Source of the DNA: a virus
Lineage: Duplodnaviria; Caudoviricetes
DNA length: 27,984 nucleotides
Virus record (IMG/VR): IMGVR_UViG_3300043414_000575
Coordinates: 1 to 27,984 of that record
Strand: one strand, 5' to 3'
The notes beneath the pieces were generated by a model, which saw only the letters and a program-made list of their open reading frames with translations, did no database searches and was not told the DNA's origin. Both the position numbers and the translations under genes were made by a program. Numbering within the stretch: the first letter of the stretch is position 1; each line of letters begins with the position of its first letter. This document shows, in pieces, positions 1,858 to 22,785 of this stretch.

Positions 1858-3081
1858 ATGGGACAATTTAAACCAATGGTCAAAATGATGACCACAGAGC
1901 CTTCAGTTGAGTTAAAACTCAAAAAAGGCGGCGCAGTCAAGATGAAAAAAGGCGGCATGGCTGAAGGCGGTCACAAGAAGATGGCTATGGGCGGTGGTGC
2001 TATGGACATGATGGCTGGCACTCCCGCTTTGATTGGTCGCCCTGCTGTGAATGCTCCCGTTCGCGCCCCCGGCAAGCCTTCTATGGCTATGCGTCGCAAG
2101 GCAATGATGGCGAAACCCGCTGTCACTCCTTCTGGCCCATCTATGCCTACACCTATGATGAAAAAAGGTGGTAAGGCTGAAGGCGGCAAGATGGACGAGG
2201 CTCAAGACAAAGCCATGATCAAAAAGGCTTTCAAGCAGCATGATGCCCAAGAGCATAAAGGCGACAAAGGCACTTCTTTGAAACTGAAGAAGGGCGGCAA
2301 GTACGCTACTGGTGGTGTTACCAATGGTCAAGGCGGCTACAAAAAAGGCGGAAACGTCAAGAAGTTTGCCAAGGGTGGTGTGGCCGGTGATGGCATCATC
2401 AATACTGAAGACCAAGGTGGCAAGTACCGCGACACTCTGATGCACACTGCTGAGTATACTGGCAAGTCTAGTGGCGTAACAGGTGGCGTGAAGAATGGTA
2501 ATGGTGGTGGCTACAAGACTGGCGGCGTTGCTTTAGGTAATGGCGGTGGCTACAAAATGGGAGGGAAAGCCTCAAAAAAAGCCTACGCGACGGGGGAAAC
2601 TGTTGATTCAGGCAAACCCGTCGCGATGACCCAAGGTCGCAAGCCAGTACCTGCACCAGTAGAGATCAGCCGTTTGGCTGGTACTTACAAGAATGGTGGT
2701 CGAGCAACTCCTGCTGAAGCACGCTTGTTGAAAAACAATGCGGCTGAAAACAAGACTGCCATGCGTGAAGCCAAAACCGACAGCAATCTGAAGTATGGGT
2801 CTCCCAAACGAATGAATGGTGGCGGTACAACTTCTGGTCAGGGTTCAATCACTGATAGCGAACGCAAGACTGTTCAGGACTTGTCCAAGGGTGCTTACGA
2901 TAAAACTGGTAAGTACAACCGTGAACTTGAGGATGCTTTGAATCCTCTGAGCATGATGAAAGAACTTGCTAGTAAAGCAAAAGATTACTTCATGCCCAAG
3001 GGTTCTGAGAGTGTTACCAAGACTAAAGAGTCTGTAACGGTTTCACCTGCAAGTAAAAAGCGTGGCGGTATGGCTTGTTGA
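1858..3081 (+). CDS. Basic Lys/Gly/Met-rich low-complexity protein with ~15 xxxGG motifs (putative internal head protein); contains a -1 frameshift signal
   Basis: AAGGAG SD at 1846-1851; repeated LKKGG/MAEGG/YATGG/FAKGG/YKTGG; the only Cys is the last residue. Confidence 0.75.
   Translation: MGQFKPMVKMMTTEPSVELKLKKGGAVKMKKGGMAEGGHKKMAMGGGAMDMMAGTPALIGRPAVNAPVRAPGKPSMAMRRKAMMAKPAVTPSGPSMPTPMMKKGGKAEGGKMDEAQDKAMIKKAFKQHDAQEHKGDKGTSLKLKKGGKYATGGVTNGQGGYKKGGNVKKFAKGGVAGDGIINTEDQGGKYRDTLMHTAEYTGKSSGVTGGVKNGNGGGYKTGGVALGNGGGYKMGGKASKKAYATGETVDSGKPVAMTQGRKPVPAPVEISRLAGTYKNGGRATPAEARLLKNNAAENKTAMREAKTDSNLKYGSPKRMNGGGTTSGQGSITDSERKTVQDLSKGAYDKTGKYNRELEDALNPLSMMKELASKAKDYFMPKGSESVTKTKESVTVSPASKKRGGMAC
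2559..2625 (+). other. Programmed -1 ribosomal frameshift cassette; predicted 249-aa product ending at TGA 2604-2606
   Basis: GGAGG at 2560-2564; in-frame heptamer A_AAA_AAA at 2574-2580; 5-nt spacer; perfect 9-bp stem CGCGACGGG (2586-2594)/CCCGTCGCG (2617-2625). Confidence 0.75.
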
Positions 3082-3084
3082 AAT

Positions 3085-3115
3085 AAGGTAGGGGCTTCGG
3101 CCCCTGCTTTTAATT
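3085..3115 (+). terminator. Rho-independent terminator with cUUCGg tetraloop
   Basis: GTAGGGGC-TTCG-GCCCCTGC followed by TTTTAATT, just after the stop at 3081. Confidence 0.8.
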
Positions 3116-3409: not shown

Positions 3410-3934
3410 ATGCCAAGCAAATCACCATCCCAACATCGTTTGATGGAAGCGGTCGCACATAACCCTGCGTTTGCCAAAAAGGTTGGTATTCCCACAAAGG
3501 TCGGCAAAGAGTTTGCAAAGGCTGATGAGGGCAAGAAATTTAAGGGAGGCGGCTTGTATGACAATATCAATGCAAAGCGTGAAAGAATCGCTGAAGGCTC
3601 TGGGGAAAAAATGCGCAGAGTTGGTAGCGAGGGTGCGCCAACGGCTAAAGCCTTCAGAGAATCAGCAAAAACCGCCAAATTAAAAGATGGCGGCCCAAAT
3701 TTATCTGTTGGGCGTGGCGAAAAATTATCCGTAGAAAAGGGCGCAGGTCTTACGGAAAAAGGGCGAGCCAAGTACAATAGAGAGACAGGATCGAACCTAA
3801 AAGCACCACAACCTCAAGGCGGTGCCCGCAAGGATTCATTTTGCGCCAGAATGAGTGGTATGCCCGGGCCAATGAAAGATGAAAAGGGCAATCCAACTCG
3901 CAAGGCGGCTGCTTTAAACAGATGGAAATGCTGA
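3410..3934 (+). CDS. Basic tripartite protein (174 aa); C-terminal module resembles DUF6321-type small phage proteins
   Basis: Modules MPSKS..VGKEF / GLYDNINAKR..SAKTAK / GLTEKGRAKYN..SFCARM..RWKC, joined by FKGGG and LKDGG. Family name is from memory. Confidence 0.7.
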   Translation: MPSKSPSQHRLMEAVAHNPAFAKKVGIPTKVGKEFAKADEGKKFKGGGLYDNINAKRERIAEGSGEKMRRVGSEGAPTAKAFRESAKTAKLKDGGPNLSVGRGEKLSVEKGAGLTEKGRAKYNRETGSNLKAPQPQGGARKDSFCARMSGMPGPMKDEKGNPTRKAAALNRWKC

Positions 3935-19869: not shown

Positions 19870-22785
19870 ATGGCAATATTGAATAAACGCAAGTCAACTA
19901 GCGAACTGCCGCAACTTCAACAACGCTCAATTTATGAGCCATTTGTAAATTTGGAGGCGGGTGAGCGAGGCCGTGAAATCCTAAGACCTAATGGTGTTCG
20001 TGATCGAGGCAACTTATCCACAGGACGCCCTGTAACCTCTGTTGTTCGAGGTGATGGCTCTTCTTTCGCTGGTGACAACTTAGGTGGACAATCATCTATT
20101 GGCGGGGGTAGATTGCCATCCCTTGGCGGCGTTACATCTCGCCCCATTACATCAACAACCTCTGGTGCATTGGCTCCACGCACAAGCATTGGTGGCCCTC
20201 GTGCAGGCATTACATCAAACCCTATAGGGATGAAGCCTGCGGCAACCGCACCAAAGCCCTCTGTTACATCTAAAACTGCCGCGGCAAAGCCTGCTTTAGC
20301 CGCCAAAAAACCTGCAGTTACTACGGCAAAACCTGCGGTTTCCACAAAGCCTACACTCACATCAAAGACAACTGCGGCAACAAAGCCAGCAATATCTAAG
20401 ACCCCTACTACGCCTGCAACCAAGACATCGGTTACGCCTACAGCAAAGCCAGTGGTTACAAAGTCTACTGGCACGACAAGCAAGTTGGGTACGGCTTTGA
20501 CTGGTGCTGCTTTAGGTGCGGCCACAAAGGCAGTCATTGACAAGATTACAGGAACTCCAAAGACTCCTGTTTCCAAATTGCCAACTTCCCCAGTTACTTC
20601 TGTTGTTAAGCCAGTAGGAACAGCAGTAAAACCTGCGGGTATTCCAACTGCGGGTGGCGTGGGGTTGAAGCCCGGCACGGGCGGCCCCTCATTAAAGCCT
20701 CCAACAGGCGGTGGTAAGCCCCCTGTTGTTCCTAAAGGCTCCACAGCTACAAAAGCGGCAACAACAGGTGCAACTGGTGCATTGACTGAAGATCAAATTC
20801 AAGCCGAGTTAGATCGAGTTAAAGCTGACGAAGAGGCAAATGTTGTTCCTGAAGGCGCCGTAACAAATGAAGATGGCTCTTACTCAGTTACTGAAGATGG
20901 AATGGTCACAACCTATGACAAAGATGGAAACATCATTGGCATGGAAGCGGTTACTGACACTACTGTAGGTAGTGATGGTACAGATACTATTGTTGCTGGA
21001 GATGGTACAGATACTACAACTGGTTTGACTAGAAGCCTTACTGGTGCAGGAGGTGCAGACACTATTGTTGCAGGAACTGGCACAGACACTTCCACCATGA
21101 CCGATCTTGGTGAAGGTTACTTCCAAGATGATAGTGGCAACATCTATGGTGCTGATGGTAACCTGATGTACACCCTTGGTGCTGATGGGGAATATGTTGA
21201 TGCCAATGATACAACTGGTACAACTGGTACAACCGATACATCAGAGGATATAACAACCTATACAGACCCAGATACAGGTTTTACATGGAATCTTGGTGCT
21301 GATGGTGAGTGGACTCAAGAAGGTTTTGATGACACTACATATGATGACACATTGGGTGATGACACCGACTATTCTCTTGAAGATGATACCGATTACTCCC
21401 TTGATTCAGGTGATGACGGTGAAATGAAGCGTGGTGGTTTAGCAGCGGCTTTGATGAAGCATGGCGGTAATGTCAAACACTTTATTGATGGTGGCCCTAC
21501 CACTTTAGGCTATGGTGATGATGAAGGCTACTCTGACACTACTGAAGAAGTTCAACCTTTCCAAAATGTTGACTACAACTATGGTGAGTTTGATGATCCA
21601 AAAATGTTTGCTGGCGACACTTCCCCATATGCTGGTAGCATGGCAAAAAACACTTACTTGCGTTCAGCATTGCCAGAAATTAGTGAAGGTCAAGGCACAG
21701 GACTAAATTTCACACCAGAGGGTTGGCCTGATGGCTATGAGGATAATGGCGATGGCACAGCTACTCGTATTGAAGAGGACGGTAGCACAATAACTATTGA
21801 TGCTGATAGCAATATTGTTTACACAACCGATCCTGATGGCAATCCTACTGATCCAAGCAGTGTAGATAGAACACCATCTACAGGCATTACAAGCACAGGT
21901 AGCACTGGCGGTCAAAGATACCGCACAGACCCTACAGAACAGCCTACAGGGGGCTTGCCTAACAACTCAGGGATACTTGACACCATCAAAAACTCTTTAG
22001 GTACTTATGCTGGGTCAGCTGCTGCTGGTGCATTGTTGGCTTCATTGCTTGAGGGTGCAAATAGTGGCGATGGTGGGGGTGGAAACTCAAGTGGTATTGA
22101 TATGTCTCAAGTAGGCGTTTTAAACCCGCGCACCACAGACTTTGGCATTGGCCCAGCACGCTATGTTGGCTATGATGAATATGGCTCTCAGGATGAAATG
22201 CCTGAAATGTATGGCAATGAGTTGTACAAGAACTTGAACGCCCCCGGCTTCAACCCCGTGAATGAAGGCGACTACGCTGATCCTGAAGAAGTTCAAAGCG
22301 GCGATGGTGCTGACTATGGCGATGAAGAAGAGATGGTTGACAACCCTGAAGAGGAATCAACTGAGATGGCTGACGGCGGTATGGCTCACCAAACTCACTA
22401 CACCTTTGGCAAGTACATTGATCCTTTGGTCAATCTTGGCCTTAAGAGTGGTCAGCCAATGAAGTCTGGTGGTTTGTCTCATGGGGGTTTACCCGCATTT
22501 TCAAATGTGCCTATTACTCAAGGTCGCTTAAACTTTAGGCAAGGTGCGGCTGTTCATGGCCCCGGTGATGGTCAGTCTGATGACATCCCAGCCATGCTTG
22601 CTGATGGTGAGTATGTGATTGATGCTGAGACTGTGGCTCAAATTGGCAATGGCTCAACTAAGGCTGGCGCACACGCTTTAGACAAATTTAGAGAAAATAT
22701 TAGATCGCACAAGCGGTCTGCATCTATTGATAAAATACCGCCTAAGACTAAGGCGCTTACATCCTACTTAAAGGGAGCAAGATAA
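19870..22785 (+). CDS. Large charge-segregated ejection protein (971 aa) with C-terminal GPGxGxSDxI domain
   Basis: K/T/P/A-rich N-third, D/G/T-rich middle, xxxGG motifs, GPGDGQSDDIPAMLADGEYV. Confidence 0.65.
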   Translation: MAILNKRKSTSELPQLQQRSIYEPFVNLEAGERGREILRPNGVRDRGNLSTGRPVTSVVRGDGSSFAGDNLGGQSSIGGGRLPSLGGVTSRPITSTTSGALAPRTSIGGPRAGITSNPIGMKPAATAPKPSVTSKTAAAKPALAAKKPAVTTAKPAVSTKPTLTSKTTAATKPAISKTPTTPATKTSVTPTAKPVVTKSTGTTSKLGTALTGAALGAATKAVIDKITGTPKTPVSKLPTSPVTSVVKPVGTAVKPAGIPTAGGVGLKPGTGGPSLKPPTGGGKPPVVPKGSTATKAATTGATGALTEDQIQAELDRVKADEEANVVPEGAVTNEDGSYSVTEDGMVTTYDKDGNIIGMEAVTDTTVGSDGTDTIVAGDGTDTTTGLTRSLTGAGGADTIVAGTGTDTSTMTDLGEGYFQDDSGNIYGADGNLMYTLGADGEYVDANDTTGTTGTTDTSEDITTYTDPDTGFTWNLGADGEWTQEGFDDTTYDDTLGDDTDYSLEDDTDYSLDSGDDGEMKRGGLAAALMKHGGNVKHFIDGGPTTLGYGDDEGYSDTTEEVQPFQNVDYNYGEFDDPKMFAGDTSPYAGSMAKNTYLRSALPEISEGQGTGLNFTPEGWPDGYEDNGDGTATRIEEDGSTITIDADSNIVYTTDPDGNPTDPSSVDRTPSTGITSTGSTGGQRYRTDPTEQPTGGLPNNSGILDTIKNSLGTYAGSAAAGALLASLLEGANSGDGGGGNSSGIDMSQVGVLNPRTTDFGIGPARYVGYDEYGSQDEMPEMYGNELYKNLNAPGFNPVNEGDYADPEEVQSGDGADYGDEEEMVDNPEEESTEMADGGMAHQTHYTFGKYIDPLVNLGLKSGQPMKSGGLSHGGLPAFSNVPITQGRLNFRQGAAVHGPGDGQSDDIPAMLADGEYVIDAETVAQIGNGSTKAGAHALDKFRENIRSHKRSASIDKIPPKTKALTSYLKGAR
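21358..21405 (+). repeat. 24-nt tandem repeat x2 encoding DDTDYSL[ED]
   Basis: gatgacaccgactattctcttgaa / gatgataccgattactcccttgat. Confidence 0.8.

Follow-up and report, generated by a model that had tools for sequence, protein, structure and literature searches.

The window, that is, the whole 27,984-nucleotide stretch of DNA analysed here, is the late-gene arm of a tailed phage. It contains a major capsid gene, a 323-aa gene, the gene of interest (hereafter the frameshift gene), a small gene, and a DUF6321 gene, and further genes encode SU10-type adaptors, fibres, a lysozyme, and large products matching an ejection protein and a transglycosylase. The first-pass annotation had proposed a -1 frameshift cassette within the frameshift gene, and every coordinate it gave for the ORF, the GGAGG, the heptamer, the spacer, the stem, and the -1 stop holds. 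Its -1 reading, SLRDGGNC followed by a stop, which gives 249 aa versus 407 aa, was also found to be correct. The features are listed below.

3 to 797, + strand: major capsid gene, truncated 5' by the window edge and lying two genes upstream of the frameshift gene
1858 to 3081, + strand: frameshift host gene, an ORF of 407 aa with a basic, Gly/Lys-rich product
1858 to 1932, + strand: near-invariant N-terminal 25-residue motif (alignment columns 1-25), common to both predicted isoforms
2560 to 2564, + strand: SD-like GGAGG ending 9 nt before the heptamer, an optional stimulator
2574 to 2580, + strand: slippery heptamer A_AAA_AAA (Lys-Lys; TCA AAA AAA), in-frame; a heptamer of the X_XXY_YYZ type occupies this site in 111/117 clusters and 239/246 unique complete genes
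2574 to 2606, + strand: -1 tail KKSLRDGGNC, terminated by TGA (2604-2606); the predicted isoform has 249 aa, ~25 kDa, and a Cys end
2586 to 2625, + strand: 3' stimulatory stem-loop with a 9-bp outer stem (2586-2594/2617-2625), a 3-bp inner helix, and a 5-nt spacer from the heptamer
2602 to 2700, + strand: conserved module found only in the long form, V-x-x-G-x-x-V-x-M-P ... G-T-x-K-x-G-G, immediately 3' of the shift site
3055 to 3081, + strand: long-isoform C-terminus K-K-R-G-G-x-A-C, Cys-ended in 120/120 closest homologues and 84/111 clusters

The 407-aa product has a net charge of +40, a pI of ~10, and a composition of 17% Gly and 15% Lys, and its sole Cys is the final residue. It carries 12 copies of the repeat [MFYL][AK]xGG. 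This repeat also occurs twice in the DUF6321 protein (3410-3934) and four times in a 971-aa acidic late protein (19870-22785), and the other 22 window ORFs checked hold one copy, in a tail-fibre gene. No matches to the host protein were found in PHROG, Pfam, or PDB, and an ESM Atlas search returned only unnamed viral clusters; the gene family comprises at least 5,232 protein clusters. AlphaFold2 predicted a mostly unstructured protein with low confidence (mean pLDDT 57, pTM 0.24), in which most of residues 1-250 have no secondary structure and the helices lie mainly in residues 285-378, a region exclusive to the long form. Within the long-form-only module, G252, M257, P258, G275, T276, K278, G280, and G281 are invariant or nearly so. 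A search for fusions of the post-shift module into a longer protein found none, which is weak evidence, and a predicted complex of two capsid copies with host-protein residues 1-40 scored 0.00, which speaks neither for nor against an interaction. Terminator-like hairpins lie at 804-833, after the capsid gene, and at 3090-3105, after the frameshift gene.

Homologous loci were drawn from viral, metagenome, and genome collections. The 489 sequences were reduced to 415 with the gene start, 352 complete genes, and 246 unique, N-free genes, which fell into 117 clusters at 70% identity. The slip site was anchored in 114/117 clusters by a protein-only HMM with a tolerance of one codon; this was used instead of regex anchoring, which missed 26/117 clusters. 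The 889 other KK dipeptides within the same genes served as control sites. Cluster counts are not independent events: the clusters are kin, and their gene tree is a mosaic of poor resolution.

An in-frame X_XXY_YYZ heptamer occupied the homologous site in 111 of the 117 clusters, compared to 39/889 control dipeptides and to the 9.3+/-2.8 sites that codon usage alone predicts. It was also found in 56/58 genes sampled through the N-terminus alone, and the signal was retained down to 22-35% protein identity. Because the cassette is conserved across homologues, it is not a chance occurrence. The heptamers were A_AAA_AAA in 58 clusters, A_AAA_AAG in 52, and C_CCA_AAA in one. Unusual codons had been noted around the site, and this was borne out: the cassette holds three of the six GGA/GGG codons in the gene (68 Gly), two of four GCG (42 Ala), and one of two ACG (29 Thr). 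Among the in-frame heptamers of 25 window ORFs, this one has the most stable downstream fold, at -26.8 kcal/mol, with the runner-up at -19.4.

The exceptions were inspected one by one. L294 has no heptamer, in L323 and L448 the downstream module is missing, and L487 looks broken; L210, a further miss, is described below. Two of the three anchored misses have a heptamer and stem farther upstream: at codon 383 in L449 and codon 284 in L484, ~35-60 codons before the site next to the module, where the heptamer has been lost. The cassette has apparently been relocated in these two. Some genes have a second A_AAA_AAG with a -1 KKVC-stop, as in L310 (codons 222 and 306) and, ~43-45 codons past the first site, in L282, L430, L433, L438, L441, L458, and L478; such a site could yield a third isoform. 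L430-L462 form a divergent clade, with 33-48% identity to the L273 query and His-rich insertions, that has kept the cassette, and in most members read the Cys end is confined to the -1 form. The A-run is off by one in L196 (longer) and L326 (shorter, and also holding an N), and the long frame is broken in both; these changes are probably assembly errors.

A short form could also arise by transcriptional slippage on the A-run rather than by ribosomal frameshifting. The window's run is an A7, and E. coli genes contain fewer AAAAAAA runs than expected, possibly via slippage (PMC4066793). However, the run is broken by a G in the 52/111 clusters with A_AAA_AAG and is C_CCA_AAA in one. Its length is 7 in 173/174 distinct contexts of the main class, short of the ~9 A or T in the T. 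thermophilus dnaX-type slippage described in excerpts of PMC5009743. The spacings, 5-6 nt to the stem and 9 nt from the SD, also suit ribosome geometry. No A-run indels are listed among public contigs; one RNA-library contig covers 2505-2679 gap-free, which bears on neither expression nor the absence of slippage. We consider transcriptional slippage to be barely credible here. It is very likely that ribosomal -1 frameshifting occurs at a useful rate.

The 9-bp stem of the first-pass annotation was confirmed, but its 22-nt loop proved to hold a further 3-bp helix (CUG/CAG). The window's stem has an MFE z-score of -2.75, and 2/200 shuffles fold equally well. The median downstream MFE was -24.4 kcal/mol at the sites and -14.2 kcal/mol at the control KK sites, and the helix begins 5-6 nt past the heptamer in 79/111 clusters. 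Some lineages have weak stems, at ~-13 to -15 kcal/mol, and the share of sites that outperform 95% of their own synonymous shuffles is only 68%.

Synonymous changes that break the heptamer or stem had been suggested as a check on the proposal; compensatory changes were found instead. Third positions of the Ala and Val codons, which are synonymous, can pair in 79 of the 97 rows that have both residues (G-C 37, C-G 20, U-A 17, A-U 2, wobble 3), and window positions 2589 and 2622 form such a compensatory pair. GCT/GTC, the combination of the KK[FY]AD class, accounts for 11 of the 18 unpaired rows, and the stem of this class appears to be shifted by one base. At column pair 16:55, both sides changed in 50 of 109 distinct rows. 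The covariation score was reached by 0/500 shuffles; sliding the partners by -2 gave equal covariation (0.175 vs 0.176), but pairing in only 45% versus 72%. RNAalifold recovered a 7-bp stem from the 55-sequence main class and no consensus structure from all 111 cassettes, a result that probably reflects the different registers of the classes.

A stable, G-C rich stem with a near-invariant ATG (Met257) directly 3' of it could instead be another RNA or DNA signal, such as a terminator, an RNase site, a pause or re-initiation control, or part of an antisense gene, with the heptamer merely encoding Lys-Lys. An intrinsic terminator was rejected, as the hairpin has no U-tract and no terminator was called at the site. 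There was also no Rfam match at the site, and the antisense frames are open in only 54, 14, and 16 of the 111 clusters. Such a signal would leave unexplained the A before Lys-Lys, the choice of AAA codons, the fixed -1 stop, and the Cys described below. We therefore regard this explanation as very unlikely.

The SD was the part of the proposed dnaX-type cassette that fared differently from the rest. The heptamer and stem stood, whereas selection for the SD was seen in 30/111 clusters only and is not family-wide. These 30 clusters, the window included, have Gly-Gly at the 9-nt register, three codons ahead of the Lys pair, and the first Gly is GGA or GGG in 29/30, versus 132/2082 other GG pairs and 1/36 other GGxxxKK contexts. 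This 9-nt distance is inside the 9-14 nt SD-to-heptamer spacing reported for -1 stimulation (PMC5009743, in part). In another 80 clusters Gly-Gly lies one codon closer; there was no SD enrichment among these (3/80), and the second Gly is GGT in 69/80 versus 26/85 controls. A_AAA_AAA was found in 24/30 SD-class clusters compared to 34/80 of the others. In E. coli, A_AAA_AAA is far less shift-prone than A_AAA_AAG (PMC5009743), and the phage host may behave differently. This suggests that the SD may compensate for the weaker heptamer, a pattern that is confounded by kinship.

The -1 frame reaches a stop 4-11 codons after the shift in 111/111 clusters, where 56 would be expected. In 96/111 the tail ends in Cys, with lengths of 4, 5, 7, or 10 residues and from differing zero-frame codons; Cys-ended -1 tails occur at 95/889 control KK sites. 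Internal Cys is rare, at 41 of 44,182 residues (~0.1%). Both forms end in Cys in 74 clusters, the short form only in 22, the long form only in 10, and neither in 5, so that terminal Cys is missing from 15/111 tails and 27/111 long forms. The predicted -1 tail thus restores the Cys end of the long form, a point missing from the earlier reading. Randomization gave 18 expected Cys-ended tails when synonymous codons were free to vary and 53+/-3.7 when the stem-paired bases were fixed; about half of the Cys signal could therefore be due to stem pairing. Together, the homologues show the anatomy of the cassette, selection on the heptamer, the stem, and the nearby -1 stop, and an excess of terminal Cys.

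ClpX degrons of the C-motif-2 class combine basic residues with a small terminal residue. Tails such as KKVC, KKAC, and KKSC resemble basic C-terminal degrons of this kind. A real frameshift might thus merely tune down the long protein, with the short product being waste or tagged for degradation and the Cys a by-product of the stem and zero-frame motifs. The 53 of 96 terminal Cys expected from pairing and the 15 tails that lack one would fit such a by-product. On the other hand, the 96 observed tails exceed that expectation, Cys is reached through tails of four different lengths from different zero-frame codons, it mirrors the end of the long form and is confined to the short form in 22 clusters, and some relatives encode just a short Cys-ended form. 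We consider the waste or degron explanation unlikely. Selection probably acts on the short form's Cys end itself, and this Cys pattern would make the short product a working one that requires an end like that of the long form.

Natural short homologues of 150-216 aa (P0148, P0210-P0213, P0226, L448, and L294) have kept the N-terminal motif, with Cys or Cys-Lys at the C-terminus. L448 and P0226 lack the long module and encode the short form only, with an in-frame GG-x-C end. L448 and L294, the short homologues with DNA, have no cassette. As assembled, L210:3202-3540 has the reverse polarity: zero-frame translation runs for 237 aa to a stop at KKC, the stem is kept, and the -1 frame adds a 113-aa extension with a Cys end. 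L210 may encode the short form, with its Cys end, in frame and make the long form by a -1 shift. It may also reflect an A-run assembly error, as it is a single contig with normal nearest relatives; no second contig was found to show the reversed polarity.

Taken together, the cassette is likely a conserved truncating -1 frameshift, similar to those of dnaX and csoS2, that sets the ratio of short to long forms of a basic, disordered protein. Ribosomes would pause at the stem while tRNA-Lys occupies both heptamer codons, the SD would assist slippage in the window's lineage, and a share of ribosomes would slip -1 at Lys240-Lys241. Termination at 2604-2606, ten codons on, would give products of 407 aa and 249 aa, both Cys-ended. 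If the protein lies inside the virion, the abundant short form would carry the N-terminal motif and the repeats for DNA condensation or lining, the isoform ratio would restrict the amount of the long form, which adds a module and helices, and chains may be cross-linked or docked through their Cys ends. It is a weaker inference that the head contains both forms, drawn from the location of the gene, the charge and disorder of its product, and the [MFYL][AK]xGG motif common to the DUF6321 and 971-aa acidic proteins. We place the host protein among basic, disordered proteins of the virion interior at even chances.

E. coli dnaX (tau/gamma) has a 5' SD, an A-rich Lys-Lys heptamer, and a 3' stem-loop, and its shift truncates the product (PMC5009743 and PMC6787027, accessible parts). 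The window's cassette shares with dnaX, as well as with IS911-type cassettes, an SD, an A-rich Lys-Lys heptamer, and a stem-loop, and like the dnaX shift it would truncate the product. The likeness to dnaX that had been claimed is one of design: the heptamer of dnaX is A_AAA_AAG, which relatives of the window often have, and the window's own is the weaker A_AAA_AAA. There is no homology; the window's gene is a phage late gene, and only some one in four of the phage lineages carries the SD. The phage tail runs for 4-11 codons and is apparently selected to end in Cys, while in dnaX the stop comes a single codon past the shift.

In Halothiobacillus neapolitanus, csoS2 (CsoS2A/CsoS2B) undergoes a truncating -1 shift whose isoform ratio sets carboxysome shell size (bioRxiv 2023.07.07.548173, accessible text). 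This alpha-carboxysome scaffold is truncated about two-thirds of the way in, at 570 of 869 aa, compared to 249 of 407 in the window. Both proteins are repeat-rich and disordered (the window's by prediction), with a conserved C-terminal part in the long form only. The likeness is one of outcome, with no link in sequence seen, and the shell here would be the phage head. Unlike the window's gene, csoS2 apparently has no SD, and the window's short form regains the terminal residue of the long form.

Known -1 shifts in phage morphogenesis genes, such as lambda G/GT, T7/T3 gene 10, and the phage A2 capsid, set product ratios (PMC5009743, in excerpt), but they extend the product while the window's cassette truncates it. 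Tail chaperones of the G/GT group were rejected because of this truncation, the position of the gene two genes past the major capsid, and the absence of a chaperone family match. The capsid-extension group (T7 10B, T3, A2) was also rejected, since the part of the capsid ORF at 3-797 has no in-frame heptamer and the cassette lies in another gene. The earlier claim of a truncating, dnaX-like programmed frameshift has strong comparative support; its further proposals, an internal head protein and a fixed isoform ratio, are conjectural. The -1 shift in cro of Lactobacillus phage A2 yields a regulator 12 aa shorter and is apparently irrelevant to infection, according to the accessible text of PMC5009743. 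Both shifts shorten a phage product, but the window's removes ~40% of the protein.

The repeated rebuilding of Cys in the -1 frame points to a C-terminal signal in these phage proteins. It is conceivable, though somewhat doubtful, that the alternative frame rebuilds such a Cys signal so that both forms of a disordered, GG-motif head protein are tagged to cross-link or dock and their ratio tunes the contents or size of the head, much as CsoS2A/B acts on carboxysomes. The adenovirus peptide pVIc has a C-terminal origin and a near-terminal Cys. This small basic peptide binds DNA and slides along it in nascent virions (PMC4740752). It is an analogy only; pVIc belongs to a eukaryotic virus and is released by proteolysis. 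No protease was found among the annotated genes of the complete relative MW202545.

Most of the phage frameshifts known so far lengthen tail chaperones or capsids; the window's is a strongly conserved truncating one. The gene is annotated as one hypothetical ORF, and so an entire predicted isoform is missing from databases. The compact cassette and its natural allelic series (AAA/AAG heptamer, with or without SD, and varied stems) offer a ready test of stimulator trade-offs. In the open literature, including PMC10885494 and bioRxiv 2025.10.02.679949, no paper on the gene or cassette was found; a description could still exist behind a subscription or in supplementary material, for instance in a table of predicted-frameshift genes.

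The frameshift gene comes from uncultured freshwater phages. The nearest named capsids belong to a spring-water metagenomic phage (88.6%), which has an orthologue of the frameshift gene at the same position, and to Caulobacter phage RW and its kin (79.5%). The frameshift gene is absent beside the capsid gene in pelagiphage HTVC023P and, despite its 79.5% identical capsid, from the matching place in RW, so the gene is dispensable for some such heads; no cultured phage with the gene was found. Searching annotated phages by tblastn gave zero matches to the frameshift protein, although MW202545 carries an orthologue, located via its capsid. The six genome-collection matches (five betaproteobacterial bins and one Hyphomicrobium) may be mis-binned phage contigs, and therefore they do not fix the host. 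The basic DUF6321 protein ends in Cys (R-W-K-C) in both the window (3410-3934) and HTVC023P (L283:8127-8444). In L001:1026-1937 and relatives, capsids are 90-99% identical while the frameshift-gene products diverge far more. Directly after its capsid gene, RW (L281:6965-8470) has an inserted 501-aa gene of divergent sequence, which gives the impression of a homing-endonuclease-type gene.
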